Assembly: GCF_003334255.1 (NCBI RefSeq)
Contig: NZ_QOWU01000037.1
Source: Escherichia coli
Lineage (GTDB): Bacteria; Pseudomonadota; Gammaproteobacteria; Enterobacterales; Enterobacteriaceae
DNA length: 51,502 nt
Direction: 5' to 3' (one strand)
Shown: one piece after another, positions 23,779-39,932 of the stretch
Layout of the letters: each line of letters opens with the position of its first letter
How positions within the stretch are numbered: position 1 is the stretch's first letter
Program-made: the position numbers and the translations under genes
The notes under the pieces: model-generated
What the model saw: only the letters and a program-made list of their open reading frames with translations
The model's database searches: none
What the model was told of the DNA's origin: nothing

Positions 23779-24861
23779 ATGAAAAAATTAACAGTGGCAA
23801 TTTCTGCTGTAGCTGCATCAGTACTGATGGCGATGTCTGCTCAGGCAGCTGAAATTTATAATAAAGACAGTAACAAGCTGGATCTGTACGGGAAAGTTAA
23901 TGCTAAGCACTACTTCTCCTCTAATGATGCAGATGATGGTGATACTACTTATGCCCGTCTTGGCTTCAAAGGTGAAACCCAAATCAACGATCAACTGACT
24001 GGTTTCGGTCAGTGGGAATATGAATTCAAAGGCAACCGCGCTGAATCTCAAGGTTCCTCCAAAGATAAAACCCGTCTTGCCTTCGCTGGCCTGAAATTCG
24101 GTGACTACGGCTCCATCGATTACGGCCGTAACTACGGTGTAGCATACGACATCGGTGCGTGGACTGACGTCCTGCCAGAATTCGGTGGTGACACTTGGAC
24201 TCAAACAGATGTGTTCATGACTGGTCGCACCACTGGTGTTGCAACTTATCGTAACAACGACTTCTTTGGTCTGGTTGATGGTCTGAACTTTGCTGCTCAG
24301 TATCAGGGTAAAAATGACCGCACTGACGTAACTGAAGCTAATGGTGATGGTTTCGGTTTCTCCACTACTTATGAGTATGAAGGATTCGGTGTAGGTGCAA
24401 CCTATGCTAAATCTGATCGCACTAATAATCAGGTTATCTACGGTAACAACGGTCTGAATGCTTCTGGTCAAAATGCTGAAGTATGGGCAGCTGGTCTGAA
24501 ATATGATGCGAACAACATCTATCTGGCCACCACCTATTCTGAAACCCAGAACATGACTGTTTTTGGTAATAACCATATTGCCAACAAAGCACAAAACTTC
24601 GAAGCTGTTGCACAATATCAGTTCGACTTCGGCCTGCGTCCATCCGTTGCTTACCTGCATTCTAAAGGAAAAGACTTGGGTGTTTGGGGTGATCAGGACC
24701 TGGTTGAATATGTTGATGTAGGTGCAACCTATTACTTCAACAAAAATATGTCCACTTTTGTTGACTACAAAATCAACCTGATTGATAAGAGCGATTTCAC
24801 GAAAGCATCTGGCGTTGCTACCGATGATATCGTTGCTGTAGGTATGGTTTACCAGTTCTAA
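23779..24861 (+). CDS. Outer-membrane porin, prophage-encoded (NmpC/Lc/OmpC family)
   Basis: 360 aa; signal peptide ...AMSAQA; AEIYNKD...; C-terminal YQF; paralog of phoE in the window. Confidence 0.9.
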
Positions 24862-24997
24862 TTTGATTACTAAAAGATATGTTGTGGGAGGCTTTGCCTC
24901 CCCAACATATAAGTGGCTCCCTCAAGCCACTTCCTTTAGAAGCACAACCTTGCTTCTAACTATACAAACCTTCTGTTATATATTACCCTTTATTTTT

Positions 24998-25022
24998 GGG
25001 GGCGTTTCAACGCCCCATTTTT
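24998..25022 (+). terminator. Intrinsic terminator downstream of porin gene
   Basis: gggggcgtttcaacgcccc hairpin followed by attttt; preceded by three further hairpins (24879..24958). Confidence 0.5.
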
Positions 25023-25049
25023 AATAACTTTTAGTAAATAATTGGCGTA

Positions 25050-25433
25050 TTAATTAGAGTTATTAACAACGATATCCATCTCTAACCGGATATCTAATGC
25101 CATTAACATCCCTTCAATTATGCCCTCAGCCTTCTGTAACCTTTTCCCGATATAACCATCAGAGCAGCAATGCTTACCTGCCAGTGACATGAATGTCATA
25201 CCGACTACATAATAATCTACTAATAAATCGTGCAAATCGCTGTTGTTCTTTTTCAGACGGGCCATGCACCCGCAAATGATCATCGCGTCATCGTCACAAC
25301 ATTGCGGGCGAGATTTTACTTTTGAAGTAATTAATCCCTTAAAACCGGCGGCAATGGACGACCAGGTCACATCTTCATGATTATTAGCCGCCCACGCTCC
25401 CCAACGCTCAAGAACCATCTGAATATCACGCAT
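25050..25433 (-). CDS. Late-gene antiterminator Q (QuuD/phage 21-82 type)
   Basis: [21 protein letters not shown]...; start at ATG 25433. Confidence 0.85.
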
Positions 25434-25655
25434 CAACTTACTCCACAAAAATCAGACCAGAACGCCAATTACAAGCAAAAATCAACAAAACAGTATTAGT
25501 TGATTGTTATCTCTGACTTCATACTCCTGCTCCTGTCAGGGTTTTGGCGTAATTCTTCAGTATTCGGTAATCGGTCAAAACAGAACCGGGGAAACGATAT
25601 AAGCGCAGACGCCCCCAGCGGTGGCGAAGAAGTTCTGCCATATTAAACTCAAACA

Positions 25656-26018
25656 TCATTCATTCCCCATTTCGGTGATGGTCAGTTCCAGCCTCCCACC
25701 TTTGGTAACAGGCATCTTCACAACACGGTAATCAACGACCTGAGCATCATCCAGCCAGAAACCTGCTTTGGTGAGTGCGTCAAAAGCGGCTTTTTGCAGA
25801 TTATCCAGGTCACGGCGACGGCGATCCGGCATGTGGCACTCAATACGGATTTTCACTGGCATAGCCAGGCCGATATCCAGCATGGAGCCTTTGATGATTC
25901 GGGCGACGTTATCGCGGTATGCCTGCCCTTCTGCGCTGACGTGCGTGCGCCCGCGATTATGGCGGTAATAGCGATTATTGCTCGGAGGCCAGGGTAATGT
26001 GATGCTGTAGGTATTCAC
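25656..26018 (-). CDS. rusA: Holliday-junction resolvase RusA
   Basis: 120 aa [27 protein letters not shown]... matches RusA. Confidence 0.9.
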
Positions 26019-26305
26019 GCCTTAATTACCCCCTCTTTCAGCCAGATAACCTGCGTTCTCGCCATACCTTCCAGCGCGCATTCTTTTGCATATCCAGCGT
26101 CAACAAAATGCGTGCGGCGGTCGATTTCGTCGTGGCAGGCAGAACATGCAATGGTGGCAATCAGGTCTGGCGGTTTCGTACCGGTGCCGCACAATCCAGT
26201 CAGCCGGATATGTGCCAGTACAGACGTTTCAGGGTTGCCATTACATACGCCAGGGATTCTTACCTGGCATTCCCGACCACGCGCTGCTTTTCTCAAATCA
26301 GCCAT
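26015..26305 (-). CDS. DUF1364/YbcO-like nin-region protein
   Basis: Cys-rich [14 protein letters not shown]...CSACHDEID; start at ATG 26305. Confidence 0.65.
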
Positions 26306-26468
26306 GATTCCTCCTTGCTGCCAGTCGCAACCATTTTTTATCAACCAGGCTAGCGGTATATCCGAGCAGTGTTGGTATTTCGGATGGTTTCAGCTCAGGC
26401 TTACGCTTACGACGATTTGGTACTCTGTAGATGTGTCCGTTCATGACACGAATAAGCGGTGTAGCCAT
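26298..26468 (-). CDS. NinE-like small basic protein (56 aa)
   Basis: Below ORF-track cutoff; [24 protein letters not shown]...[11 protein letters not shown]; TAATG coupling with upstream gene. Confidence 0.45.
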   Translation of the reverse strand: MATPLIRVMNGHIYRVPNRRKRKPELKPSEIPTLLGYTASLVDKKWLRLAARRNHG

Positions 26469-26923
26469 TACGCCTCCTGCTTGTCGCGCAGCAGCTGGAA
26501 CTCGCAGCTCTGCGGAATAGTCAGGTGGCAGCCAATATTCATCGCCCAGGCTTCAACCTTACACAGGAAGACATACATCTCTCCGCTATCAAGATTGGAG
26601 GTATGACGTAATGACTGAATGGTGGTGATTTCACCGGTTACGACATCAACCAGTTCTTTGGTTTCATAACCGAGATAAGTGTGTTTGAGAGCATCTTTTA
26701 CCCAAGCTGGAGTGGCGAACGTTTTACCCCTGCTGATGAGGTATTCACTGATTTCGCTGTACCACATGTGGCTGAGTGCATTCTGGGAAAGACTGCGTCT
26801 CTCGCGCCACGGTTTAAGCACCATGCGAAAGCATTTGCCGTCCTCCAGATAAGGCTGGATCTGCTGGCCGATAGCGGTGAAGTTACCGCGATGCAATTTG
26901 ATACCATCTTGTGGGAGGTTCAC
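26468..26923 (-). CDS. YbcN-like nin-region protein (DUF1367-like)
   Basis: 151 aa; ggaggtga SD; DLP12 ybcN-like by recall. Confidence 0.65.
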
Positions 26924-27110
26924 GCTTCACCTCCGCAGAGATCAAACGCTGGATGCAAAATATCGCAGGTGCATTTCTGCATCTGTGAATGGAGAAGAGA
27001 GGTTGGATTGTATGTGCGCATAAACGTCCCCGTTTAGCGCAGAAGTCACCGGAGTTGTTCAGGCTCCGATGACATGATTATGGCGGGTTGATTATGGAAA
27101 ATCAATCAAG

Positions 27111-27620
27111 CTATGTTTCATCGGCGAGGTCATCATCTGTGACAATCATGAGGTTAAAGAATGAAATAATGTTTAACCACTGCGAGTAAATATCGCTCGT
27201 CATGCTGGTTAGCTCCTCTCCGTGAAAGAAGGCATCAGGCCCAACCTCATAGTTGAGCTCTTCAAAAAGCTCCATGTTTAATTGGCTAATAAAGAATTGC
27301 TTCAGACCTTTCATTGCATCCTGATTGTTGGTATCTGAGTAATTTATTATGCTCCCCATTGCCATGTTCAAACATCGAACAATATTGGCTGCGTCATGAA
27401 AGCTCCAGTCAGCCCCTTTCTTTCCTTTTGAGTATGAATTCGCTCTCTCAGCGCAAGCTTTTAATGTCTCGTACAAATACTGCTTTCCTTGCAACTGCAA
27501 AGCTTTTTCGGATGTGGCCCTGCTAGCTTCTGAGGATCGCCATGCTAAATAAGTTGCTACCGCAGATGCGATAGCTGCAATCGCAGAAACTGCATCTATA
27601 CCGTTATCCCAACCAGACAT
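27111..27620 (-). CDS. Hypothetical single-pass membrane protein (169 aa), low GC
   Basis: N-terminal hydrophobic helix AVSAIAAIASAVATYLAW, no recognised domain; AT-richer than flanks by eye. Confidence 0.55.
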   Translation of the reverse strand: MSGWDNGIDAVSAIAAIASAVATYLAWRSSEASRATSEKALQLQGKQYLYETLKACAERANSYSKGKKGADWSFHDAANIVRCLNMAMGSIINYSDTNNQDAMKGLKQFFISQLNMELFEELNYEVGPDAFFHGEELTSMTSDIYSQWLNIISFFNLMIVTDDDLADET

Positions 27621-27646
27621 AAAAACCCCCTCGATTATTTGAGGGG
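27621..27646 (-). terminator. Intrinsic terminator-like hairpin immediately upstream of the 169-aa gene start
   Basis: Minus-strand cccctcaaataatcgaggggg followed by ttttt, abutting the ATG. Confidence 0.4.
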
Positions 27647-27669
27647 ATTATACCTTCAAAGTTTCCGCG

Positions 27670-27891
27670 CTACCCATTCATAACTAAAGCTTTTGCTTTC
27701 CAATGAGAAAGCGCGCTATGTTCGCTAGAACCTGTTTCGACTATATGGCGCCCCCAGGAATCTCCCCATGCTCTCCACGTTGACTTGCCGGTTTGGACTA
27801 CTGTGACAACATACTCTTTGCCGTCGATGTTAACTTCATGCTGCACTGGTGATTGTGATTTCATTTTCAAACCTCTGCTTATCGTTGACAT
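27670..27891 (-). CDS. Hypothetical small protein (73 aa)
   Basis: ORF; Trp-rich motif WRAWGDSWGRH; no recognised family. Confidence 0.45.
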   Translation of the reverse strand: MSTISRGLKMKSQSPVQHEVNIDGKEYVVTVVQTGKSTWRAWGDSWGRHIVETGSSEHSALSHWKAKALVMNG

Positions 27892-27915
27892 CGCAATTAT
27901 GCTGTCACGACATAA

Positions 27916-28722
27916 TCACTTCGCCTCCTGCTGCGGTGCTGCTGCGATCATGGCCTTCCATTGGTGGTCTGGGCTCCATAATCTACCGCCATCTTCACAC
28001 TCTTCCTGCGCCTGATGGTACGCCTCACGCATTTCTGGAGTTGGCTCCTTAGGAACCAGCACCCAACCATCCGGAATCACCGGAGAGTTGCTGACGGGCG
28101 ACTCGGAAATTTTTGGCGAAGAATCTAGGGCTGGCGCGGTCTGCATGGTGGTGGGCGACTCGGCTTTTTCGGCACCCTGAAGCATGGCGTCGCGGCATCC
28201 GTCATACGCTTCTTTCATAGCATCACGCACCCATCCGACAGGTTTCTGCTCAGTCAACTCACACCATTTCTCGAATGTGGGCACAGATACCGGAACTGGC
28301 GGTGCTGCATAAAGCGCCTGACAACTCCAGCCAGACCAGTGAGCACCCTCCGCTCTCTCATCATCTTCAGGGCGAACAAGCGTGACTTCGCTCGGGTGTT
28401 TCCTGTGTGACCACAGCCAGGCTACGGTTTCGGCATTGGCTGGCTCTGGCGGGGCGGAGTAAAAATACTCATCCTCAATCCCATCAACGGGCTTTGAGAA
28501 GCCGATAAAATCACCATAATGCCAAGGATAGGGGCCGTATGGCTCAGAGGTCACACGACGCCACCGGTGAATGGCAGGCTCCGCTTCGAGCGATGCCAGC
28601 GCGATACGCAGTGCCGCCAGCGTGTTGCTGTCGCCTTCGTCCAGACCGAACGGGATTTCATCTCTGGCTGCTTCCATGTCGGCAATTTTCTGCTGCAGCC
28701 ATTGTTTGGTAATAGTGCTCAT
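27916..28722 (-). CDS. Hypothetical prophage protein (possibly DUF550/DUF551-type)
   Basis: 268 aa, Pro/Trp-rich; ATGA overlap with downstream ead-like gene. Confidence 0.55.
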   Translation of the reverse strand: MSTITKQWLQQKIADMEAARDEIPFGLDEGDSNTLAALRIALASLEAEPAIHRWRRVTSEPYGPYPWHYGDFIGFSKPVDGIEDEYFYSAPPEPANAETVAWLWSHRKHPSEVTLVRPEDDERAEGAHWSGWSCQALYAAPPVPVSVPTFEKWCELTEQKPVGWVRDAMKEAYDGCRDAMLQGAEKAESPTTMQTAPALDSSPKISESPVSNSPVIPDGWVLVPKEPTPEMREAYHQAQEECEDGGRLWSPDHQWKAMIAAAPQQEAK

Positions 28723-29132
28723 GATGCCTCTCCTTTACCGGATGCGGCGGCGATCAGCTTCTGCGCCTGCTGAATGTCAGGATTGCCTGCAATCATCACT
28801 TCTGGCGCGTCACAGTCACCGCCAAGGTCAAGAATGCGCTCATGTCCGGTACGCAGGCAGGATTTGTATCCTGAAACCGTCTGCTTGAGCGATTCGGTCA
28901 GCACAGCAATCCTCTGGTCTTTGGCTTCCAGCTCATCCAGCAGCGCCAGCACTGTGGCTGGGTTGGCTACGGAGTTCAGCGCGTTCAAGGCAGTGATATC
29001 TGCATCAAGCTGAGTTCCTTCTGCCAGTGAGATATCGAAAATGTCATCAGGCGGCATAACACTAAGGCGCTCATGTGCACCAACTGCTGCCTCAGCGATT
29101 TCACGTAATGCGCGTTTGTCGATGTTGCTCAT
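28719..29132 (-). CDS. ead/Ea22-like protein
   Basis: 137 aa starting MSNIDK; coiled-coil-like. Confidence 0.55.
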   Translation of the reverse strand: MSNIDKRALREIAEAAVGAHERLSVMPPDDIFDISLAEGTQLDADITALNALNSVANPATVLALLDELEAKDQRIAVLTESLKQTVSGYKSCLRTGHERILDLGGDCDAPEVMIAGNPDIQQAQKLIAAASGKGEAS

Positions 29133-29147
29133 TCTTCATCCTCCAAC

Positions 29148-29360
29148 TCAGATACGGCGTCCATTACATCTGAGCCGCGAATGGTTTCGAATGCCACACA
29201 AGACCATTTCAAAGCACAGGCGCTCATGCGGGTGCGGAGATTGCCAATACTTGAAGCCAGGACGATGCGAATAGCCCTGCATCGCATAAAACTCTCCGGC
29301 CAATTCAATGGCGGCATCCACCAGTTCACGGTTTGTCATTGGTTTGTCGATGTTGCTCAT
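29148..29360 (-). CDS. Hypothetical protein with ead-like N-terminus (paralogous start)
   Basis: Starts MSNIDK; 19-nt identical 5' end with the neighbouring gene (29114..29132 vs 29342..29360). Confidence 0.45.
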   Translation of the reverse strand: MSNIDKPMTNRELVDAAIELAGEFYAMQGYSHRPGFKYWQSPHPHERLCFEMVLCGIRNHSRLRCNGRRI

Positions 29361-29557
29361 TGGGCGGCCTCCTGGATTAACTTTTCGAGAATGGCATCAA
29401 GGGCTTTCCGTTTTCCGATATACCCGCCACCAACCCACTCTCCACGAAGCAAGGCGTAATATTTCCCGTCGTCTTCGTGATACGGTCCTCGGATAGACCA
29501 GTCGGTTGTGATGGCGTCGATAGCCTTTTTAGTTTCTGCGAAATCCATCATGCTCAT
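29357..29557 (-). CDS. Hypothetical protein
   Basis: ORF 29357..29614; start placed at MSMMDFAE (29557), directly after ren stop. Confidence 0.45.
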   Translation of the reverse strand: MSMMDFAETKKAIDAITTDWSIRGPYHEDDGKYYALLRGEWVGGGYIGKRKALDAILEKLIQEAAQ

Positions 29558-29847
29558 ACCCCTACCCTCCCCCAAACCATCAACACCCGCTTCATCGCGG
29601 CACTCTGGCGACACTCCTTAAAAATCAGGTTAGTGCTCACCTTTCCTTCCCGTTCTTCCCTGGTAGCGAATCTGTAATACACCGTTCGCCAGACCTTACC
29701 ATCTATGACCAAGATTCCTGCCCGCGCCATTTTAGCCGCAGCCTGATTTATGCTGGTTACTGTTGCGCCTGTTACCGCGGCAACGTCCAGCGCACAGAAG
29801 CTCTTATGCGTCCCCAGGTAATAAATAATTGCCTCTTTACCCGTCAT
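29554..29847 (-). CDS. ren: Ren protein (lambda Ren-like)
   Basis: MTGKEAIIYYLGTHKSFCALDVAAVTGATVTSINQAAAKMARAG... near-identical to lambda Ren. Confidence 0.85.
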   Translation of the reverse strand: MTGKEAIIYYLGTHKSFCALDVAAVTGATVTSINQAAAKMARAGILVIDGKVWRTVYYRFATREEREGKVSTNLIFKECRQSAAMKRVLMVWGRVGV

Positions 29848-30545
29848 ACACTTGCTCCTTTCAGCCCAAACTTAGCTTTGATTTCTGCGATCTTCGCCAG
29901 AGCCTGTGCACGATTTAGAGGTCTACCGCCCATAACAGGAAGTTGTTTTACTGGTTCAGGTATCGTCTCACCACGGTTAATTCGCGCTGTCATACAGGTC
30001 AGTTCATCGGCAGCCTTGCGCCGTAATTCCGCGTCAGTCAGCGCATTGGCCCGCATGTTCTGGTACAAGTTGGTAACCAACCAGTAATGCGCGTTCGATT
30101 TCCACGGATAAGACTCTGCATCCGGATACAGGCCACGCTTCCGGCAATACTCGTAAACCATATCAACCAGCTCGCTGACGTTTGGCAGCCCGGCGTTAAC
30201 AGATGCTTCTTCCCGGCACCAGGCGACAAACTGCCCGGGTGATGGCAGGAATGGTCGATTCTGCCGACGGGCTACGCGCATTCCAGCGTTAACCTGTTCC
30301 ATTGTGGTGATCCCGTTTTCCCGGAAAGCCAGAACCCACTGGCGACGGATTTCGTTCAGTTCATTCTGGTCACGGTTAGCCAGGCTCGCCGGGAAAGTTG
30401 CCAGTAACTGGCTGAACACACCGTTGATGATCTGCGCTACCTGCTGTACCTGTGGCTTTTCGTCGTACTGTTCCGGCATGTTGTTGGCGATCCGGCGCAT
30501 CTGCTCACAGTCAAAGTTAACCATCTGTGCGGCGATGTTTTTCAT
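29844..30545 (-). CDS. P: Replication protein P (DnaB helicase loader)
   Basis: 233 aa, MKNIAAQMVNFDCEQMRRIANNMPEQYDEK... near-identical to lambda P. Confidence 0.95.
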   Translation of the reverse strand: MKNIAAQMVNFDCEQMRRIANNMPEQYDEKPQVQQVAQIINGVFSQLLATFPASLANRDQNELNEIRRQWVLAFRENGITTMEQVNAGMRVARRQNRPFLPSPGQFVAWCREEASVNAGLPNVSELVDMVYEYCRKRGLYPDAESYPWKSNAHYWLVTNLYQNMRANALTDAELRRKAADELTCMTARINRGETIPEPVKQLPVMGGRPLNRAQALAKIAEIKAKFGLKGASV

Positions 30546-31471
30546 AGCTCCACCCCGTAAATCCAGTCAGTGTTCGTCAGGTCGAGTTTTGGTTTGCCGG
30601 CTGTCACGCCAGCCTGTTGCTTGTTTCGGTTGATTTCGAGCTGGGTCCACTTGTCGCGGAGTTTGGCCGGACTTAGCACGTTACCGGACCAGAAGTTGTC
30701 CTGGCATGCCCAGCGGAACAGCACGCACATGTCGCGGTGGTTACGTCCGTCACGTTCACGCATCAGGCGGATATCGTTAGCCCACCCAGCAAAATTCGGT
30801 TTTCTGGCTGATGGCGCGATGGTCTTCACCATGTCAAACATCCACTCTGCGGCGGTCAGGTCTTCTGCTGTCCCCCACTTGCTGCCGCTCTGAATTGCAG
30901 CATCTGGTTTCACCACAGGAAGATCGTTTTCTGGTTGGTCAGAGGATTCGCCAGAATTCTCGGACGAAAAAGGTTTTATATTGTCTTTTGTTAGTTTGTC
31001 TTTTGTGTTTACCTGATTCGGGTAAACGCCTTTACCTGATTTGGGTAAACTTTTTTTACCTGATTCAGGTAAATTTACCTCTTTCAGGTAAACTTTATTT
31101 TTCTTACCTGATTCGGGTAATGTTGACCATTCACTGACCACATTATTAATGCCGGTATTCCGCCCGCTCTGAATAAAAATCCCACGCTTTACCAGAACAC
31201 TTTTTGCAGCAGAACACTTGTGCGGCAATATCCCGGTTAATTCGGAAAGTTGCTCGTTGCTAACCCAATCCAGTTTTTTATTAAAGCCATATGTTTTGCG
31301 CATGACAGCCAGAAAGACCAGAAGCTGGTGCTGTGTTAATCCGGCCAGCATCACAGCTTCCAGCAACTCATTTGCAATGCGCGTATAACCATCATCGAGA
31401 TCTGCCACGCGCGGCTCCTTTTGTGCCGCATCCGGCACTGGAAAATTGAATATCTCAGCAGTGTTTGCCAT
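30542..31471 (-). CDS. O: Replication initiator O
   Basis: C-terminal half near-identical to lambda O; start placed at ATG 31471 (MANTAEIF) with ggagg SD; iterons internal. Confidence 0.85.
   Translation of the reverse strand: MANTAEIFNFPVPDAAQKEPRVADLDDGYTRIANELLEAVMLAGLTQHQLLVFLAVMRKTYGFNKKLDWVSNEQLSELTGILPHKCSAAKSVLVKRGIFIQSGRNTGINNVVSEWSTLPESGKKNKVYLKEVNLPESGKKSLPKSGKGVYPNQVNTKDKLTKDNIKPFSSENSGESSDQPENDLPVVKPDAAIQSGSKWGTAEDLTAAEWMFDMVKTIAPSARKPNFAGWANDIRLMRERDGRNHRDMCVLFRWACQDNFWSGNVLSPAKLRDKWTQLEINRNKQQAGVTAGKPKLDLTNTDWIYGVEL
31008..31120. repeat. ori iterons (5 x ~19 bp, O-binding sites) with adjacent AT-rich region 30960..31007
   Basis: ttacctgattcgggtaaac and four variants in tandem inside O coding sequence. 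Confidence 0.75.
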
Positions 31472-31557
31472 AATTCCTCCCGCAATGAGTGTGTTACGAT
31501 TTGCACCTGAAAGTCGGTTCTGTTCCAGCAGACCGGCTTTCGCCATTTCTGAACCTG

Positions 31558-32097
31558 TCATATCGCCCCCAGCATGGTAGTAACCATCGCCATCAATGGA
31601 CCAGCCAGATCTGGGTCCACACGAAACATCGACACAATACCTTCACTAATTTCCTTCAGTTTCTGGTGGCGTGGTGCGTTGAGAATGACAGCCTGTTTTG
31701 CCTCACTGAGTTCCTTTTCCATTTCAGCCAACCTAGCCATGAAGCTATCCTGCTCAACCAGGTAACCGCGATATTCCAGCGGTAGTACCGCCAGAATTGC
31801 CGGGGTCAGTTCACGCACGTTATTTCGGTATTTTTCAGAATCGAATTTGTTATCGAGGAAGCGGAACAGCTTCTGGCGTGCACGGCTGACATCATCAGGG
31901 AAATCGATGGTGCCGCCGCCCTGCTCCCGATACTCATTCACAATGAGTGTGGCAACGACATCCTGATTATCTACAGCCGACCAGGCGCGGACGGCATCAC
32001 GGATTTTTTCGTGGCCTGGCACCTGTTTTGTTTGAGAACGATTTATCACCGCAGTCGGGCTAAATCCGCTAGTCTGTTGGTATGTAAGTGGTTGCAT
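31558..32097 (-). CDS. YdaT-family protein (CII-position regulator)
   Basis: 179 aa; motifs NEYREQGGG and LTPAILAVLPLEYR resemble Rac YdaT by recall. Confidence 0.6.
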   Translation of the reverse strand: MQPLTYQQTSGFSPTAVINRSQTKQVPGHEKIRDAVRAWSAVDNQDVVATLIVNEYREQGGGTIDFPDDVSRARQKLFRFLDNKFDSEKYRNNVRELTPAILAVLPLEYRGYLVEQDSFMARLAEMEKELSEAKQAVILNAPRHQKLKEISEGIVSMFRVDPDLAGPLMAMVTTMLGAI

Positions 32098-32166
32098 AAT
32101 TGACTCCTTTAGTTTGAATTGACTGTTAAGTTGATTGCTTATTGTTAAAGAGCGTGAAATGGAAAT

Positions 32167-32397
32167 TTAAGCTGCGTTCTTTTCGGTGTGTGGAAACAAC
32201 TTCGGAAGATCCGGGCGAATCTGGTATGCCTTCACTACTCCACCAGTAGCCGTAACAATGCTGCCGACATGTTCAGGGGATACCTTTGCTTTGTTGTGAA
32301 GCCACTTATAGACGGCCTGCTGTGAAACTTCGCAAGCAGCGCCCAGTTTCTTTTGTGAACCAACGATATTGATCGCTGTTTTGATAGCTGGGTTCAT
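32167..32397 (-). CDS. Cro-like HTH regulator (YdaS/Cro family)
   Basis: 76 aa, HTH VSQQAVYKWL; divergent from repressor gene. Confidence 0.65.
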   Translation of the reverse strand: MNPAIKTAINIVGSQKKLGAACEVSQQAVYKWLHNKAKVSPEHVGSIVTATGGVVKAYQIRPDLPKLFPHTEKNAA

Positions 32398-32501
32398 AAC
32401 AACCTCCGTGGTTAATTTGAATCAAGATTAAAACTATGGTTGTTTTTAGTCAACAACCATTTTCGTTTGATGGAATAAAACCTTGGTTGTACATTTGGAC
32501 T
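32398..32501. promoter_or_regulatory. Immunity-region operator/promoter (OR-like) between cro-like and cI-like genes
   Basis: Inverted repeat atggttgtttttagtcaacaaccat plus further aaccttggttg half-sites. Confidence 0.5.
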
Positions 32502-33191
32502 ATGAAAACAACACTCTCAGAAAGACTTAAAGAAGCCAGATTAGCGCGAGGCCTTACACAAAAGGCGCTTGGGGATTTGGTCGGGGTTAGCCAGGCTGCT
32601 ATTCAGAAAATCGAAACAGGGAAAGCTAATCAAACAACTAAAATCGTGGAGATCGCGAACGCTTTGGGTGTGCGCGCAGAATGGTTATCTTCTGGCGTTG
32701 GAAATATGTCAGACAGTACAGTGCAACCAATACAATCAACTGTCAGCCATTCCAAATACTTCAAGATTGACGTTCTTGATATAGAAGTCAGTGCTGGGCC
32801 GGGAGTCATCAACCGTGAGTTTGTAGAAGTTCTACGCTCGGTTGAGTACTCGTTTGACGATGCTCGTCACATGTTCGATGGTAGGAAGGCGGAAAATATC
32901 CGCATCATTAACGTGCGTGGTGACAGCATGTCAGGAACGATCGAACCAGGTGATCTGCTGTTCGTTGATATCACAGTTAAATCTTTCGACGGTGATGGTA
33001 TCTATGCGTTTCTGTACGACGACACAGCCCATGTAAAGCGCCTGCAAATGATGAAGGATAAGCTGCTGGTCATCTCTGATAACAAAAGCTACTCACCGTG
33101 GGACCCGATCGAGAAAGACGAGATGAACCGGGTGTTCATCTTCGGTAAGGTTATTGGGAGCATGCCGCAGACATATAGGAAGCATGGGTAG
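32502..33191 (+). CDS. CI-type repressor (HTH + S24 LexA-like peptidase domain)
   Basis: ORF 32436..33191; start at MKTTLSERLKEARLARGLTQKALGD; C-terminal S24-like with GDSM. Confidence 0.85.
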   Translation: MKTTLSERLKEARLARGLTQKALGDLVGVSQAAIQKIETGKANQTTKIVEIANALGVRAEWLSSGVGNMSDSTVQPIQSTVSHSKYFKIDVLDIEVSAGPGVINREFVEVLRSVEYSFDDARHMFDGRKAENIRIINVRGDSMSGTIEPGDLLFVDITVKSFDGDGIYAFLYDDTAHVKRLQMMKDKLLVISDNKSYSPWDPIEKDEMNRVFIFGKVIGSMPQTYRKHG

Positions 33192-33312
33192 TACCAATTA
33201 AAAATTATCAACTGGGCATTGTGCTCATTCAGTAAAGAACTAATTCCTATCTTTGCTCTAGGTAGTAATATTAAGCCACCGCAATAATATCTTTACCTAA
33301 CGGCGTAAGAAT

Positions 33313-33339
33313 CCCGGTCACCGTGCCGGGTTTTCTTTT
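33313..33339 (+). terminator. Intrinsic terminator downstream of repressor gene
   Basis: cccggtcaccgtgccggg hairpin followed by ttttctttt. Confidence 0.5.
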
Positions 33340-33439
33340 GCCCTCCCCTCATCACACACACCGTTAAAAAAACCACCATAACCTCGCTTCAGTTATCGCT
33401 ATGCGATTCAAGTCACAAAATAAATCCATCCTAAATACA

Positions 33440-33520
33440 ACCAGTTATATCTAAAACAACCAATAAAACAACTTTTGTTGTTGACGATAAAACAACTATA
33501 GTTTTAAATAAGTTCATCGC
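33440..33520 (+). promoter_or_regulatory. Candidate OL/PL-like region
   Basis: Operator-like aacaacttttgttgtt palindrome and repeated aacaac half-sites; ttgacg and possible -10 nearby. Confidence 0.35.
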
Positions 33521-33702
33521 AACAACACAACGATACGGCAACTACCTGATTCACCGTTGCGATGACCGCTTAGATCCGCAGTTTGAATTTCAGCAGGCTT
33601 CGGGGAGTGCGAGGGGTGAAACGGACGCGTGAACGTCGGTGTGACCAGCTGAAATTAACTCAACATTTCATACCTTAGTCGCTTCAACGAGGCGGCTTAG
33701 TT

Positions 33703-33993
33703 ATGACAACCGGCGGCCATCCACCGCCTGAATACGCGCAGAAGTCTCTATATGTTCAGCAGCCCAGCTTACGGGCAGGAGTTTTTATGGTTCATCAACA
33801 TTATGGAACGCAGACCGTTAATCGAGGTGCGGTCATGCCAGGAATGCTGGTCAAACACAAAGATGGTACCTGGACTGCATCAGCTAATTTACGCGGACGG
33901 CTTTATCTGCATCGCGGCATCGAGTGCACTTATACCCGTGATTTGCTCGTGGAAGTTTTTCTCGACGGACGCGGTAACGGCCTGAATCACTAA
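33703..33993 (+). CDS. Hypothetical protein in kil position (possible Kil-like host-division inhibitor)
   Basis: ORF immediately upstream of gam; internal starts (MVHQHYGTQ) possible; no confident homology. Confidence 0.35.
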
Positions 33994-34068
33994 TCCCCTT
34001 TCCTGTTTTCCTAATCAGCCTGGCATTTCGCGGGCGATATTTTCACAGCCATTTTCAGGAGGTCAGCC

Positions 34069-34365
34069 ATGAACGCTTATTACATTCAGGATCGTCTTGA
34101 GGCTCAGAGCTGGGCGCGTCACTACCAGCAGATCGCCCGTGAAGAGAAAGAGGCAGAACTGGCAGACGACATGGAAAAAGGCCTGCCCCAGCACCTGTTT
34201 GAATCGCTATGCATCGATCATTTGCAACGCCACGGGGCCAGCAAAAAAGCCATTATCCGTGCGTTTGATGACGATGTTGAGTTTCAGGAGCGCATGGCAG
34301 AACACATCCAGTACATGGTTGAAACCATTGCTCACCACCAGGTTGATATTGATTCAGAGGTATAA
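34069..34365 (+). CDS. gam: Gam, RecBCD inhibitor
   Basis: 98 aa [21 protein letters not shown]... near-identical to lambda Gam short form. Confidence 0.95.
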
Positions 34366-34370
34366 AACGG

Positions 34371-35156
34371 ATGAGTACAGCACTCGCAACGCTGGCAGGG
34401 AAGCTGGCTGAACGTGTCGGCATGGATTCTGTCGACCCACAGGAACTGATCACCACTCTTCGCCAGACGGCATTTAAAGGTGATGCCAGCGATGCGCAGT
34501 TCATCGCATTGTTGATCGTCGCCAACCAGTACGGCCTTAATCCGTGGACGAAAGAAATTTACGCCTTCCCTGATAAGCAGAACGGCATCGTTCCGGTGGT
34601 GGGCGTTGATGGCTGGTCCCGCATCATCAATGAAAACCAGCAGTTTGATGGCATGGACTTTGAGCAGGACAATGAATCCTGTACATGCCGGATTTACCGC
34701 AAGGACCGTAATCATCCGATCTGCGTTACCGAATGGATGGATGAATGCCGCCGCGAACCATTCAAAACTCGCGAAGGCAGAGAAATCACGGGGCCGTGGC
34801 AGTCGCATCCCAAACGGATGTTACGGCATAAAGCCATGATTCAGTGTGCCCGTCTGGCCTTCGGATTTGCTGGTATCTATGACAAGGATGAAGCCGAGCG
34901 CATTGTCGAAAATACTGCATACACTGCAGAACGTCAGCCAGAACGCGACATCACTCCGGTTAACGATGAAACCATGCAGGAGATTAACACTCTGCTGATC
35001 GCCCTGGATAAAACATGGGATGACGACTTATTGCCGCTCTGTTCCCAGATATTTCGCCGCGACATTCGCGCATCGTCAGAACTGACACAGGCCGAAGCAG
35101 TGAAAGCTCTTGGATTCCTGAAACAGAAAGCCACTGAGCAGAAGGTGGCAGCATGA
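34371..35156 (+). CDS. bet: Bet (Red-beta single-strand annealing protein)
   Basis: 261 aa [26 protein letters not shown]... near-identical to lambda Bet. Confidence 0.95.
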
Positions 35157-35833
35157 CACCGGACATTATCCTGCAGCGTACCGGGATCGACGTGAGAGCT
35201 GTCGAACAGGGGGATGATGCGTGGCACAAATTACGGCTCGGCGTCATCACCGCTTCAGAAGTTCACAATGTGATAGCAAAACCCCGCTCCGGAAAGAAAT
35301 GGCCTGACATGAAAATGTCCTACTTCCACACCCTGCTTGCCGAGGTTTGCACCGGTGTGGCTCCGGAAGTTAACGCTAAGGCGCTGGCCTGGGGAAAACA
35401 GTACGAGAACGACGCCAGAGTCCTGTTTGAGTTTACTTCCGGCGTGAATGTTACTGAATCACCGATCATCTATCGCGACGAAAGTATGCGCACCGCCTGC
35501 TCTCCCGATGGTTTATGCAGTGACGGCAATGGCCTTGAGCTGAAATGCCCGTTTACCTCCCGGGATTTCATGAAGTTCCGGCTCGGTGGTTTCGAGGCCA
35601 TAAAGTCAGCTTACATGGCCCAGGTGCAGTACAGCATGTGGGTGACTCGAAAAGATGCCTGGTACTTTGCCAACTATGACCCGCGCATGAAGCGTGAAGG
35701 CCTGCATTATGTCGTGATTGAGCGGAATGAAAAGTACATGGCGAGTTTTGACGAGATGGTGCCGGAGTTCATCGAAAAAATGGACGAGGCACTGGCTGAA
35801 ATTGGTTTTGTATTTGGGGAGCAATGGCGATGA
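35153..35833 (+). CDS. exo: Exo (Red-alpha 5'-3' exonuclease)
   Basis: 226 aa [30 protein letters not shown]... near-identical to lambda Exo. Confidence 0.95.
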
Positions 35834-36012
35834 CGCATCCTCACGATAATATCCGCGTAGGCACGATCACTTTCGTCTACTCCGTTACGAAGCGAGGCTG
35901 GGTATTTCCCGGCCTTTCTGTTATCCGAAATCCCCTGAAAGCACAGCGGCTGGCTGAGGAGATAAATAATAAACGGGGAGCTGTATGCACAAAGCATCTC
36001 CCGTTGAGTTAA
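35824..36012 (+). CDS. Hypothetical small protein (lambda early-left orf-like)
   Basis: 62-aa ORF overlapping exo stop. Confidence 0.5.
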
Positions 36013-36176
36013 GAACGAGTATCGAGATGGCACATAGCCTCGCTCAAATTGGAGTCAGGTTTGTGCCAATACCAGTAGAAACAGACGAAGAATTTCATAC
36101 GTTAGCCGCATCCCTTTCACAAAAGCTGGAAATGATGGTGGCGAAAGCAGAAGCAGATGAGAGAGACCAGGTATGA
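35985..36176 (+). CDS. Hypothetical small protein (lambda orf63-like)
   Basis: 63-aa ORF. Confidence 0.5.
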   Translation: MHKASPVELRTSIEMAHSLAQIGVRFVPIPVETDEEFHTLAASLSQKLEMMVAKAEADERDQV

Positions 36177-36252
36177 CAACCACTGAATGCATTTTTCTGG
36201 CAGCGGGCTTCATATTCTGTGTGCTTATGCTTGCCGACATGGGGCTTGTTCA

Positions 36253-36468
36253 ATGACACCTCAGCAAGAAAACGCCCTTCGCAGCATTGCCCGTCAGGCT
36301 AATTCTGAAATCAAAAAAGCCAGACAGCAGTTTCCGGATAAAAACGTCGATGACATTTGCCGTAGCGTACTAAAGAAGCACCGCGAAACGGTAACGCTGA
36401 TGGGATTCACACCGACTCATTTAAGCCTGGCGATCGGCATGTTGAACGGCGTCTTTAAGGAACGGTGA
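36253..36468 (+). CDS. Hypothetical small protein
   Basis: ORF 36187..36468; start placed at MTPQQENALRSIARQ (36253). Confidence 0.45.
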   Translation: MTPQQENALRSIARQANSEIKKARQQFPDKNVDDICRSVLKKHRETVTLMGFTPTHLSLAIGMLNGVFKER

Positions 36469-36489
36469 ACATGAAAAGCAAAATCATCA

Positions 36490-36512
36490 GGGAGCTACAG
36501 GCTCCTTTTTTA
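36490..36512 (+). terminator. Terminator-like hairpin
   Basis: ggagctacaggctcc followed by ttttttatt. Confidence 0.35.
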
Positions 36513-36566
36513 TTGTTCGCATTCACCCTCAAGCGTATTAACCAACAATTCAGGGATTAATGGAAG

Positions 36567-36785
36567 ATGGCAGACATCATTGATTCAGCATCAGAAATTG
36601 AAGAATTACAGCGCAACACAGCAATAAAAATGCACCGCCTGAACCACCAGGCTATATCTGCCACTCATTGTTGTGAGTGTGGCGATCCGATAGATGAACT
36701 AAGACGTCTGGCCGTTCAGGGTTGTCGGACTTGTGCAAGTTGCCAGGAGGAGATCGAACTTAAGAACAAACAATGGGGATTGTGA
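36567..36785 (+). CDS. TraR/DksA-family C4 zinc-finger protein
   Basis: CCECGDPIDELRR...CRTCASCQEE. Confidence 0.75.
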   Translation: MADIIDSASEIEELQRNTAIKMHRLNHQAISATHCCECGDPIDELRRLAVQGCRTCASCQEEIELKNKQWGL

Positions 36786-36833
36786 TGGCCTCAAAGCAGC
36801 AAATTTCAACATCAGTCCAACTGAGGTGTAAAA

Positions 36834-37112
36834 ATGTTCAGAATCATTTTTCCTAACACCTGGTACGTCGACCACCACGGCACTCCCTGCAAAATCCTGC
36901 GTTCTACCCACAACAAAGTTCACTACATCCGAAAAGGCAGAACATGTATCGCCAGCATGTTCCGCTTTAATCATGACTTTGAACCTGTGAATAAAGCTGA
37001 TGCAGATCGGATAGCAGAAGAGATCGAAACGGCAGAACACATTAAGAAGTTACGTGACATGCGTTCAAAAAGCAGAGGTAACCATGGAATCATACAGCCT
37101 CACACTCGATGA
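36834..37112 (+). CDS. Hypothetical protein
   Basis: 92-aa ORF upstream of xis; overlaps xis start. Confidence 0.45.
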   Translation: MFRIIFPNTWYVDHHGTPCKILRSTHNKVHYIRKGRTCIASMFRFNHDFEPVNKADADRIAEEIETAEHIKKLRDMRSKSRGNHGIIQPHTR

Positions 37113-37434
37113 GGCCTGTCAGTTTCTCAAGATATCCAGACCTACCGCTACCAACTGGATACGAACAGGCCGCCTACAGGCAACACGCAAAGACCCCACT
37201 AAACCAAAATCTCCTTACCTCACAACGCGACAAGCCTGCATTGCGGCGCTTCAGTCTCCGCTGCATACTATCAAGGTGAGCGCGGGTGATGGCATAACAG
37301 AGGAAAGAAAATGTCACTCTTCCGCAGAGGTGAAATATGGTACGCCAGTTTCACATTGCCGAACGGTAAAAGATTTAAACAGTCTCTTGGAACAAAGGAC
37401 AAAAGGCAGGCGACAGAACTCCATGACAAGCTAA
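37084..37434 (+). CDS. xis: Excisionase-like HTH protein (Xis)
   Basis: [31 protein letters not shown]; agagg SD; 3' end overlaps int, true stop uncertain. Confidence 0.55.
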
Positions 37435-38474
37435 AGGCTGAAGCATGGCGGGTCAGCAAACTTGGTGAAATACCTGATATAACGTTCGAGGAAGCGTGTG
37501 TCAGGTGGCTTGAAGAGAAAGCACATAAAAAATCACTGGACGATGACAAAAGCCGGATCGGATTCTGGCTTCAACATTTCGCAGGAATGCAACTAAGAGA
37601 CATTACTGAATCAAAAATTTATTCAGCAATGCAGAAAATGACGAACCGGCGTCATGAGGAAAACTGGAAACTCAGGGCAGAAGCATGCAGAAAAAAAGGG
37701 AAACCTGTTCCAGAATACACGCCAAAACCAGCGTCCGTTGCAACGAAGGCTACGCATCTTTCATTTATAAAGGCCCTACTAAGAGCCGCAGAGCGTGAAT
37801 GGAAAATGCTGGATAAGGCACCAATTATTAAAGTGCCTCAACCAAAGAATAAACGGATCCGCTGGCTGGAGCCCCATGAAGCACAAAGGCTGATTGATGA
37901 ATGTCCGGAGCCATTAAAGTCTGTTGTTGAATTTGCACTGGCAACAGGCTTAAGACGCTCGAACATCATCAACCTTGAATGGCAACAAATAGATATGCAG
38001 CGCCGGGTGGCATGGATAAACCCGGAAGAGAGTAAATCAAACCGCGCAATCGGCGTTGCGCTGAATGATACTGCATGTCGCGTTTTGAAAAAACAAATCG
38101 GGAATCATCACCGTTGGGTATTTGTGTACAAGGAAAGCTGTACCAAACCAGACGGAACGAAAGCGCCAACAGTAAGGAAGATGCGGTATGACGCAAACAC
38201 AGCCTGGAAAGCAGCGCTGAGGCGGGCTGGTATTGATGATTTCAGATTTCACGACTTGAGACACACCTGGGCAAGTTGGCTGGTTCAAGCCGGAGTCCCG
38301 TTGTCAGTGTTACAGGAAATGGGAGGCTGGGAGTCTATCGAAATGGTTCGTCGATATGCTCACCTTGCACCTAATCACCTTACCGAACACGCACGGCAAA
38401 TAGACTCGATCCTGAACCCATCGGTCCCAAATTCGTCCCAGTCAAAAAATAAGGAAGGTACTAATGATGTGTAA
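37311..38474 (+). CDS. int: Tyrosine integrase (IntD/DLP12-type)
   Basis: 387 aa [22 protein letters not shown]...[10 protein letters not shown]...VRRYAHL; ends 14 bp from tRNA 3' end. Confidence 0.9.
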
Positions 38475-38488
38475 CTTATTGATTTAAA

Positions 38489-38564
38489 TGGTGCCGATAA
38501 TAGGAGTCGAACCTACGACCTTCGCATTACGAATGCGCTGCTCTACCAACTGAGCTATATCGGC
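38489..38564 (-). tRNA. thrW: tRNA-Thr (anticodon CGU), thrW-like; prophage attachment site
   Basis: Reverse complement GCCGATATAGCTCAGTTGGTAGAGCAGCGCATTCGTAATGCGAAGGTCGTAGGTTCGACTCCTATTATCGGCACCA folds as cloverleaf. Confidence 0.9.
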
Positions 38565-38678
38565 CCTGAAAGGACATGTTCACGAACGTGAATCACGGTG
38601 GACAAGGTTAAAACTAACCGGGCGATGCGTCAATGGCCTTGTGAATCAAATGGCTACTTTTGCATCACCCGGTTTTAT

Positions 38679-39932
38679 TTACGCACGAATGGTGTAATCA
38701 CCAATGCCGATCCACTTGTAAGTGGTCAGTGCTTCCAGCCCCATTGGGCCACGCGCGTGGAGTTTTTGTGTGCTTACCGCCACTTCCGCACCCAGACCAA
38801 ACTGGCCGCCGTCGGTAAAACGCGTAGAGGCGTTAACGTAAACAGCGGACGAATCCACTTCGTTAACAAAACGCTGGGCGTTGCGCATATCGCGGGTCAG
38901 GATCGCATCGGAGTGTTGTGTGCCGTGTTCACGAATATGGGCGATGGCATCGTCAAGATCGCTGACGATTTTGACGTTCAAATCTAATGACAGAAACTCA
39001 TCGTCATACTCTTCGGCTTTAACAGCAACCACCTTCGCAGGGCCTGCCTGCAACTGCGCCAGTGCAGCTGCATCTGCGTGTAATGTCACGCCGCTTTCCG
39101 CCATTTGTTTGCTTAATGCGGGCAGGAAGCTATCGGCGATGTTTTTATTCACCAGCAACGTTTCAACCGTATTACATGTGCTCGGACGCTGAGTTTTCGC
39201 GTTGACGATCACTTTTAATGCTTCAGCGATCTCTACACTTTCATCAACGTAAATATGGCATACGCCTATACCACCTGTGATCACCGGGATTGTCGACTGT
39301 TCACGGCACAGTTTATGCAAACCAGCGCCACCACGCGGGATCAGCATGTCGATGTATTTATCCATACGCAGCATTTCACTGACCAGCGCACGGTCAGGAT
39401 TATCAATCGCCTGCACGGCACCCGCCGGTAAGCCGCAGGATTTCAGGGCGTCCTGAATCACCGCCACCGTTGCAGCGTTAGTGCGACACGTTTCTTTGCC
39501 ACCGCGCAGGATCACCGCATTACCGGTTTTCAGGCACAGCGAAGCGACATCAACCGTCACGTTCGGGCGCGCTTCATAAATCACGCCAATAACCCCCAGC
39601 GGTACGCGACGACGCTCAAGACGCAGGCCGCTGTCCAGTACGCCGCCATCGATTACCTGCCCCACCGGATCGGCGAGGTTGCACACCTGACGTACATCGT
39701 CGGCAATGCCTTTCAGCCGTGCGGGCGTCAGTGCCAGACGGTCAAGCATCGCTTCGCTAAGGCCATTGGCTCGCGCGTCAGCAACATCCTGGGCGTTAGC
39801 GTTGAGGATGATTTCGCTTTGTGCTTCCAGTTCATCGGCGATTTTTTCCAGCACGCGATTTTTTTCGCGGCTGGAGAGTTGCGCTAATTTATACGAGGCT
39901 TGCTTCGCGGCAATGCCCATTTGTTCCAGCAT
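38679..39932 (-). CDS. proA: Gamma-glutamyl phosphate reductase
   Basis: 417 aa; matches E. coli ProA. Confidence 0.95.

Follow-up and report, generated by a model that had tools for sequence, protein, structure and literature searches.

How are the early genes of a lambdoid prophage expressed when the prophage has no N gene? The question is raised by the immunity region at 31558-33700 of a stretch of Escherichia coli DNA of 51,502 nucleotides (nt) (assembly GCF_003334255.1, contig NZ_QOWU01000037.1), which at its full length is called the window here. The lambda map is inverted in the window, the - strand bearing the rightward operon and the + strand the leftward one. Phage lambda itself needs N to reach its delayed-early genes. 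The prophage in the window is of a type that has no N, no pair of nut sites and no put RNA, yet its relatives form plaques or produce virions: positions 31400-34100 match Escherichia phage PhiR34_1, a phage propagated on K-12, with 100% identity, and they match IdasGreatGrand, Turner, PhiR5_1, PhiR47_2, 4A7, the virion producer Perceval and other members of the genus Bievrevirus with 94-99%. Nor is the type rare: of 5,426 complete E. coli genomes, 1,243 (~23%) contain at least 80% of the length of 31558-33700. That a plaque-forming lambdoid group this common does without N, nut or put means that its early genes must be timed in some other way.

We put at roughly 0.55 the probability that this is a functional lambda-like prophage immunity module, in which a CI/Cro switch is joined to a YdaS/YdaT pair, the early-left operon works without N and the nin-Q promoter carries a YdaT box. 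CI would bind the palindromes between the divergent genes and ahead of the left operon and so shut both pR and pL, transcription from pRM would start at the cI ATG, and YdaT would act as a CII analogue, as it does in Rac and CP-933P. Once pL is free, its transcript would run through a leader of ~270 nt, a hairpin and an upstream open reading frame (uORF) into kilR, gam, bet and exo. To reach exo the left operon would need no processive antitermination because there would be nothing to read through, the strong terminator found in phages of the phi80/HK225/KO-TP1 type being absent. The nin-Q block would be served at least partly by a promoter of its own over which a YdaT box lies, and since the box covers that promoter YdaT would hold Q back, in much the way that CII does via paQ.

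The CI/Cro switch and its operators

Both halves of a lambda-type switch can be recognized at 31558-33191. The repressor is listed among the open reading frames (ORFs) as 32436-33191 (+), with a start inside the operator palindrome, although its likely start is the ATG at 32502, as annotated in IdasGreatGrand. From there it encodes a protein of 229 aa (32502-33191, +) with an N-terminal helix-turn-helix (HTH) and a C-terminal, LexA-like S24 self-cleaving domain (Pfam HTH_3, 1e-12, and Peptidase_S24, 1.8e-18; phrog_4, 8.7e-73), in which the Ala-Gly motif (VSAGPG), GDSMS and HVKRL are visible. A protein with an HTH and an S24 peptidase is probably SOS-cleavable. Divergent from cI lies a gene for a Cro-like repressor of 76 aa (32167-32397, -) with GGAGG 5 nt upstream of its ATG; it belongs to the YdaS family (YdaS_toxin PF15943, 4.9e-17; P22_Cro, 1.2e-4; HTH_3; phrog_35, 1.5e-27). 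The cII position beyond it is occupied by a YdaT-family protein of 179 aa (31558-32097, -) that matches YdaT_toxin (PF06254, 1.4e-29), phrog_163, a 'CII-like transcriptional activator' family (3.9e-67), and the solved structure of CP-933P YdaT (8BT1, E=0.0019), with RARQKLFRF in place of RNTQKIFRW in the recognition helix. A YdaS-family HTH protein followed in one operon by a YdaT-family protein is the arrangement of the Rac and CP-933P modules. The sequence-only reading of the window had already named a CI-type repressor divergent from a Cro-like gene and a YdaT-family protein in the place of cII, and the profiles bear this out; the labels given to the region by PGAP (Prokaryotic Genome Annotation Pipeline) are 'S24 family peptidase | toxin YdaT domain-containing protein | transcriptional regulator'.

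Where would these repressors act? The right operator region (OR, 32398-32501) contains a perfect 9-nt inverted repeat, ATGGTTGTT-N7-AACAACCAT, at 32436-32460, and the motif AACAAC/GTTGTT occurs four times within ~130 nt there and five times within ~105 nt of the left operator (OL) area, whereas 45 copies on both strands of the 51.5-kb window predict only ~0.1 per region. As read from the sequence, the proposed pR (-) has its -35 hexamer, TTGACT, at 32453..32448 and its -10, TTAATC, at 32431..32426, while the proposed pRM (+) combines TTGATG (32467-32472), a spacer of 17 nt and TACATT (32490-32495), so placed that its transcript would be leaderless. The second operator set, OL/pL (33436-33511, +), has half-sites AACAAC(C) at 33455, 33467 and 33491 and GTTGTT at 33477, and the proposed pL (+) pairs TTGACG (33481-33486) across 17 nt with TTAAAT (33504-33509). 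The putative pR and pL share the build TTGAC-N-AAAACAAC-ATAGTTTTAA, with the -35 of both covered by a GTTGTT-N7/8-AACAAC palindrome and further half-sites flanking it. Operators over pR and pRM beside a divergent cro, with another set at pL, are what a lambda-type switch would be predicted to have.

The strongest test of this layout is comparison with hetero-immune siblings (4A7, Perceval, PhiR68_2 and D2), which supports it. In these phages only ~33440-33515 is exchanged, for repeats of the ATCAATAGCAAT type, and the flanks of the exchanged block are >96% identical. The pL hexamers nevertheless fall in the same alignment columns, TTGACG-17-TTAAAT in the window and TTGATA-17-TATTAT in the siblings, which argues for a pL at 33481-33509 with its start near 33516. 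The palindromic operators claimed for the region are upheld by the inverted repeat at OR, the enrichment of the motif at both places and the exchange of the OL/pL block. The claim of OL-like palindromes stands for the half-sites from 33455 to 33491 but not for AACAAC at 33521, which we rejected as an operator because it is within the leader that hetero-immune phages have in common.

The repressor transcript, as had been noted, is followed by a terminator: CCCGGTCACCGTGCCGGG with a T-run (33313-33340, +; 6 pairs, 5 of them GC), a putative intrinsic terminator of the immunity transcript that is kept in all six aligned relatives. Between the cI stop and this terminator (33192-33312), the position of rexAB, there is a slot for accessory or defence genes. 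It is empty in the window; in relatives it holds inserts of 1-4 kb (retrieved stretches L002, 4861-6417, and L003, 4840-6256) encoding HipA-like proteins, GevT/GevA, or a hypothetical protein with an ASCH-domain protein.

An early-left operon without N

Is N truly missing, or has it been overlooked? Between 33192 and 33702 the + strand contains no ORF of at least 30 aa but one, of 31 codons, with a TTG start (MNFSRLRGVRGVKRTRERRC..., 33583-33678). Its product is rich in arginine and includes KRTRERR, a string reminiscent of the arginine-rich motifs of N proteins, and in 4A7, Perceval and D2 its stop has changed from TAG to CAG, so that the frame runs on into kil; a 139-aa product is annotated in that frame in Perceval. 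These are the points that could be made for an N-type protein that went unnoticed, either here or elsewhere in the prophage, an explanation that we regard as barely credible. The ORF has no Shine-Dalgarno sequence, the changes among relatives (3 synonymous, 4 non-synonymous) are those of neutral evolution, its stop is gained or lost between close relatives, its product matches no PHROG family, and there is no cognate nut hairpin. A tblastn search with phi80 N and with arginine-rich motifs gave nothing credible. Known N proteins are ~100 aa long and have, besides an arginine-rich N terminus, regions that bind NusA and RNA polymerase, for which 31 residues leave no room. We rejected the ORF as a mini-N and judge it not to be a gene, and from these searches we conclude that no N gene is present, as the sequence-only reading had held. 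The accompanying estimate of ~500 bp free of an N-like ORF holds for N but falls short in length: the non-coding stretch is really ~595 nt, with the real kil start at 33787.

The slot of N is occupied by the untranslated pL leader (33517-33662, +), part of the ~270 nt of untranslated RNA that pL would give between cI and kil. The leader is >96% identical across immunity types, and a scan of IMG/VR for exact matches to 24 of its bases found it at no fewer than 133 loci, each on a viral contig, joined to 3-4 types of operator; among the matches listed, the uORF lies at a fixed distance of 80-85 nt in 124 of 133 loci. We found no boxA in it at up to 3 mismatches and no nut-like site, and the combination of boxA and a boxB hairpin on both early transcripts, as in nutL and nutR of lambda, P22 and phage 21, is not present.

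An RNA of the put type, which in HK022 replaces N, was sought with a covariance model. We reconstructed HK022 putL, checked its numbering against the cryo-electron microscopy paper (PMC9378689), aligned seven more put RNAs and from these 8 sequences built a model (R1) whose consensus fold has six compensatory pairs. It returned 91-100 bits for putL RNAs, 50 bits for HK022 putR and 48 bits (E = 1.7e-13) for a putR-like site after cro in UPF_BP1 on which it had not been trained. In window positions 24000-39000, searched with filters off, the best score was 9.8 bits, inside the O gene, and there was no match in 4A7, IdasGreatGrand, KO-TP1, HK225 or phi80. An HK022-type put RNA, that is, a two-stem RNA of ~74 nt with the core CGAACGGCGCG...GGCGGGYTCAGGAWGARCGGCAAT after both pL and pR, is absent. 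The leader sequence UCGGGGAGUGCGAGGGGU resembles HK022 putL by eye and was rejected as such by the covariance model. A scan of 28000-36000 against Rfam at its E-value threshold gave no match in the leader and only a spurious one to rliD on the origin iterons, although Rfam has no put family and HK022 itself yields nothing with it. The UPF_BP1 site is itself an unannotated putR-like RNA of a Salmonella phage, situated between cro and cII (retrieved stretch L132, 219-298, -).

Could the leader be a cis-acting RNA of a new kind, one that acts against Rho or terminators as put does while being unrelated to it in sequence? There are reasons to consider it. The leader is kept beside different operator sets, and its diversity (pi 0.025, or ~0.030 without the 24 probe nt) is lower than that of third codon positions nearby (0.042-0.049) and of the kil-gam spacer (0.034), as is its share of segregating sites (14% against 25-39% at third codon positions). 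Folding predictions give it local structures of -11.6 and -27.3 kcal/mol. In addition, the window cro has 69-75% DNA identity to that of UPF_BP1 and HK639, both of which carry put, and the authors who described the N-less phage LLS likewise guessed at a put-like mechanism (PMC12315714). Set against these are the negative result with the put model, a whole-leader folding z of -0.75, which is no better than shuffled sequences, and the lack of a second, putR-like copy anywhere in the window, right operon included. Covariation is of no help in either direction, since identity of >96% leaves no power and positions 33582 and 33656, where T/C changes are linked, do not pair. The constraint is mild, typical of a 5' untranslated region and in part an artefact of collecting loci by exact match, and before exo there is no strong terminator on which such an RNA could act. 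We consider this explanation quite unlikely, and its boldest form, a new class of cis-acting RNA of ~150 nt, carried unchanged beside several operator sets and unlike put in sequence and fold, that needs no phage protein to protect early-left transcription in a prophage family present in roughly one in four E. coli genomes, more doubtful still.

What the left operon has after its leader, and what it lacks, is best seen by comparison with phi80. The segment at 33666-33768 recurs in phi80, where it stands just after the gene annotated 'N', and in HK225, Klebsiella phage KO-TP1 and Enterobacter phages. A scan of IMG/VR with ATGACAAYCGGCGGCCATCCACCG retrieved at least 120 stretches, giving 129 loci in all with the motif. 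Of the loci listed, 90 of 129 have the element preceded by accessory ORFs, which are hypervariable, and by a strong terminator (CCCGCnnCGGCGGGTTTTTT or GCCGCCTAACCAGCGGCTTTTTT); in the other 39 a leader of the window type abuts the hairpin directly, with no terminator. None of the slot ORFs is N-like, and the phi80 'N' is phrog_25091, a family of unknown function. The window thus has the junction that follows the terminator in phi80 (hairpin, uORF, kilR), with no phi80-type leader, no ORF like phi80 N and no terminator stem before CATACC.

Over 33515-35890, which spans pL through exo, the + strand is predicted to form only weak terminator-like hairpins, none of more than 6 pairs. For the left operon the missing terminator favours 'no antitermination' over 'N-independent antitermination', and early-left expression is most likely independent of N with no barrier to read through. 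Of the two possibilities offered by the sequence-only reading, that early-left antitermination is N-independent or that it is absent, independence from N is supported, and it is absence that the missing terminator would favour.

Does the missing terminator signify decay? Relatives with the same hairpin-uORF-kil junction do carry ORFs and a terminator at this place, and phi80 is annotated with N there, so one might suppose that nutL, N and tL1 have been deleted from a decayed prophage that has lost its normal lytic programme. This we regard as highly improbable. The region is identical in PhiR34_1 and shared with IdasGreatGrand and Turner, Perceval makes virions, and no fewer than 133 viral contigs and roughly one E. 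coli genome in four have the arrangement in fixed form. Moreover, the leader is no simple deletion derivative of the phi80 type. A MAFFT alignment of the window leader with the phi80/KO-TP1-type leader looked persuasive, yet we rejected the homology on score and profile evidence: the local (Smith-Waterman) score was 26 against a mean of 23.3 and a maximum of 39 for shuffled sequences, and nhmmer with a profile of 16 phi80-type leaders found no match in the window leader. Because the two leaders are not detectably homologous, we dropped the idea of a simple nutL-N-tL1 deletion.

The phi80-type leader has features of its own. In ~250 nt after pL (examples in retrieved stretches L006, ~2280-2530, and L007, 1850-2100) it has a GGCGGACAGCAAGUCGCC hairpin followed by a boxA-like GCTTTTTAACAA, an order of hairpin and boxA that resembles that of rrn leaders; the combination was found at 17 distinct loci on the + strand and 1 on the - strand. 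Two subtypes of it differ in further blocks by what look like compensatory changes. Downstream come hypervariable ORFs, with phi80 'N' itself at no more than 5 loci.

The hairpin at the junction (AGTCGCTTC / GAGGCGGCT, 33674-33700, +) is real by its pattern of covariation: in 20 stem variants, all of which form it in one and the same position, pairing extends to 97.7% of cells and 7 of 11 pairs have compensatory changes, a score reached by none of 500 shuffles, while slid controls are 27-50% paired. It has no Rfam entry and precedes a kilR-type kil in phi80, HK225 and phages of Klebsiella and Enterobacter. Within it lies a GAGG, just upstream of the start of the uORF (MTTGGHPPP..., ATGACAACCGGCGGCCATCCACCG, 33703-33786, +), the first 24 nt of which served as the probe that recovered the 129 loci; the surrounding block is near-invariant in an alignment of four phages. 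In the window's phage type the uORF shares the reading frame of kil; in phi80 and HK225 it ends before kil. Hairpin and uORF may control translation of Kil, and the PPP run suggests stalling that depends on EF-P.

The ORF that the uORF opens (33703-33993) resembles KilR from residue 29 only (NF008465, 2.8e-16 over residues 29-96; phrog_294, 7.6e-38), and 4A7 is annotated with a kil of 207 nt that corresponds to the ATG at 33787. We accordingly place a kilR-type FtsZ inhibitor of 68 aa at 33787-33993 (+), with AGGAG at 33776-33780. The frame 33752-33985, which is annotated in PhiR34_1 as a hypothetical protein (4508-4741 of PV340559.1), was rejected since it matches no family and KilR is in another frame. 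The lambda Red module follows, with the ORFs of gam, bet and exo at 34069-35833 (+), annotated in PhiR34_1, IdasGreatGrand and 4A7; no long gene precedes them in the left operon. An ORF in the kil position followed by gam had been proposed for this place, and both are there.

Timing of the right operon

If the left operon needs no antitermination, how is the right one timed? A promoter-like sequence, TTGATT-17-CATAAT (27077-27105, -), lies upstream of ninB...Q, and its -35 and spacer coincide with an exact YdaT box, TTGATTATGGAAAATCAA (TTGATTN6AATCAA), at 27088-27105. Among the 36 loci that encode YdaT and extend 9 kb or more on that side, the box and the -10 recur in 21 (nearly all collected loci encode YdaT), the genes upstream of them vary, and downstream a GCCATAAT is conserved across loci. 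It is possible that this is an internal promoter gated by YdaT, in analogy to the control of lambda paQ by CII. At the cro/ydaT junction, the position of the box in Rac and CP-933P, where it controls a reverse promoter like pRE, a search for (T/A)TGATT-N6-AATCAA with up to 2 mismatches found none.

What that junction does contain is a perfect boxA-like 13-mer, CGCTCTTTAACAA (32154..32142, -), 12 nt past the stop of cro and 44 nt short of the ATG of the ydaT-like gene. The window has no other exact match; chance alone would give ~0.0015 of them in 103 kb, or 1.4 matches if up to 2 mismatches are allowed. Within the 13-mer, GCTCTTTAACA (32153..32143, -) fits the GYTCTTTAANA of rrn-type boxA. That consensus is published, and the geometry of a boxA ahead of a start codon has been studied (PMC5725501). 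A short N-like ORF or clear nut sites had been named at the outset as findings that would overturn the N-less view; the leader holds neither, and the nutR position after cro has a perfect boxA with no predicted hairpin or boxB next to it and no N.

Might the host alone put this boxA to use? An rrn-like complex of Nus factors could assemble on it and either shield pR transcripts from Rho or repress translation of ydaT, as boxA does at suhB. The exactness of the match, its uniqueness, its nutR position and its distance from the start codon, which agrees with the published geometry, all speak for such a role. However, it has no partner resembling boxB or boxC, and the left operon has no boxA. Hetero-immune siblings of the 4A7 type, with the same ydaT-O-P, have a spacer of 30 nt at this place and no boxA, and that of KO-TP1 is 18 nt; we therefore rejected boxA as a group-wide feature in favour of one specific to the window's immunity type, and its lack in sibling phages argues that it is not essential. 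Its complement, furthermore, overlaps TTGATT-N6-TGTTAA (TTGATT-GCTTAT-TGTTAA) at the very position of the YdaT box in Rac and CP-933P (PMC9986795, PMC11879457), so it may be a DNA-binding site. The boxA could be a relic, could let Nus factors control ydaT in the manner of suhB, or could belong to a DNA site. We hold host-only action at boxA to be unlikely; it and a new leader RNA are possible, weakly supported alternatives to the promoter-based, N-free module that we prefer.

Several observations weigh against that module. Rho-dependent terminators cannot be predicted from sequence, and an untranslated leader of 270 nt would be a natural target of Rho, so that a need for protection from Rho is possible; that the leader varies somewhat less than third codon positions nearby is a hint of function. 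Better candidates for terminators than those before exo are found at 35894-35916 (+) and 36489-36507 (+), before xis and int, and the - strand has a single decent one, at 27649-27624; with these hairpins in the way, Q, xis and int may still need read-through. The perfect boxA after cro is left unexplained by the model, and the best match to a YdaT box at the cro/ydaT junction, the TTGATT-GCTTAT-TGTTAA just described (32131-32148), agrees at only 9 of 12 positions. Finally, we infer from sequence where the promoters lie, that the repressors bind and in which direction YdaT acts.

The right operon also has P (29844-30545), O (30542-31561) and, with the nin block, a Q-like antiterminator (25050-25448). 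O has iterons near 31000-31120, four or five copies similar to TACCTGATTCGGGTAAAC at 31003-31120, as in a lambda-type origin. To the right of ren the window (27100-29550) is unlike PhiR34_1 (retrieved stretch L001, 1-2100), having genes of phrog_14548, phrog_60 and phrog_1779 where PhiR34_1 has SMR and YbcK-recombinase genes, and the prophage is therefore a mosaic relative of PhiR34_1 and not that phage itself.

Comparison with known systems

The module is of a known kind, a lambda-style CI/Cro switch with a published YdaS/YdaT pair, and it is extremely common. With its sequence in the databases and its protein families described in print, the gain is incremental. N-less lambdoid phages are on record as well, among them HK022 and LLS (PMC12315714). 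A literature search on the PhiR phages and on phi80 nutL found nothing useful. If our preferred reading is true, a cascade of promoters replaces antitermination and in many E. coli prophages the choice between lysis and lysogeny is wired differently from that of lambda, which would be relevant to predicting prophage induction and Kil toxicity.

Among the systems with which the window can be compared, phi80 and its allies share the junction: CATACC, the covarying hairpin, the uORF ATGACAACCGGCGGCCATCCACCG and kilR, and both types belong to one large mosaic family. They differ in that the phi80 type has a leader of ~250 nt with a boxA-like motif, variable ORFs and a strong intrinsic terminator, all of which the window does without. 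HK022 and HK639 are alike in being N-less lambdoid phages with untranslated RNA right after pL, and the cro of HK639, as of UPF_BP1, is distantly related to that of the window at the DNA level; unlike them, the window scores at most 9.8 bits where put RNAs score 48-100 bits, and it has no Nun-like gene and no putR-like copy after cro. LLS (PQ299149) is a different N-less lambdoid phage, likened to the window by its description. Its authors suggest a put-like mechanism that they did not try (PMC12315714), and put, tested in the window, was not supported.

Phage lambda shares with the window a divergent cI/cro pair at a multi-site operator, further operators at pL, a pRM transcript that is probably leaderless, a slot and terminator after cI in the position of rexAB, O, P, ren, gam, bet and exo, and a Q-type late regulator. 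The window departs from it in lacking N, nutL, boxB and cIII and in having YdaT, which is unrelated in sequence, for CII, a kil of the KilR type and GTTGTT-N7/8-AACAAC operators.

The close counterparts of the window's switch also include the modules of Rac (RacR-YdaS-YdaT) and CP-933P (PaaR2-YdaS-YdaT), in which YdaT is a published CII analogue (PMC9986795, PMC11879457, PMC8630535). Here too a Cro-like YdaS-family gene and then a YdaT-family gene follow pR, the repressor gene is divergent, and the left operon has a kil of the KilR type and no annotated N. The window's YdaT, at 179 aa, has an extra N-terminal stretch and is distant from 8BT1, and its exact YdaT box, which in Rac and CP-933P is at the ydaS/ydaT junction, lies ~5 kb downstream on a putative promoter. 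Unlike theirs, the window's repressor is a complete CI that includes the S24 self-cleavage domain, and whereas Rac and CP-933P are cryptic, the phage type of the window is intact and active.

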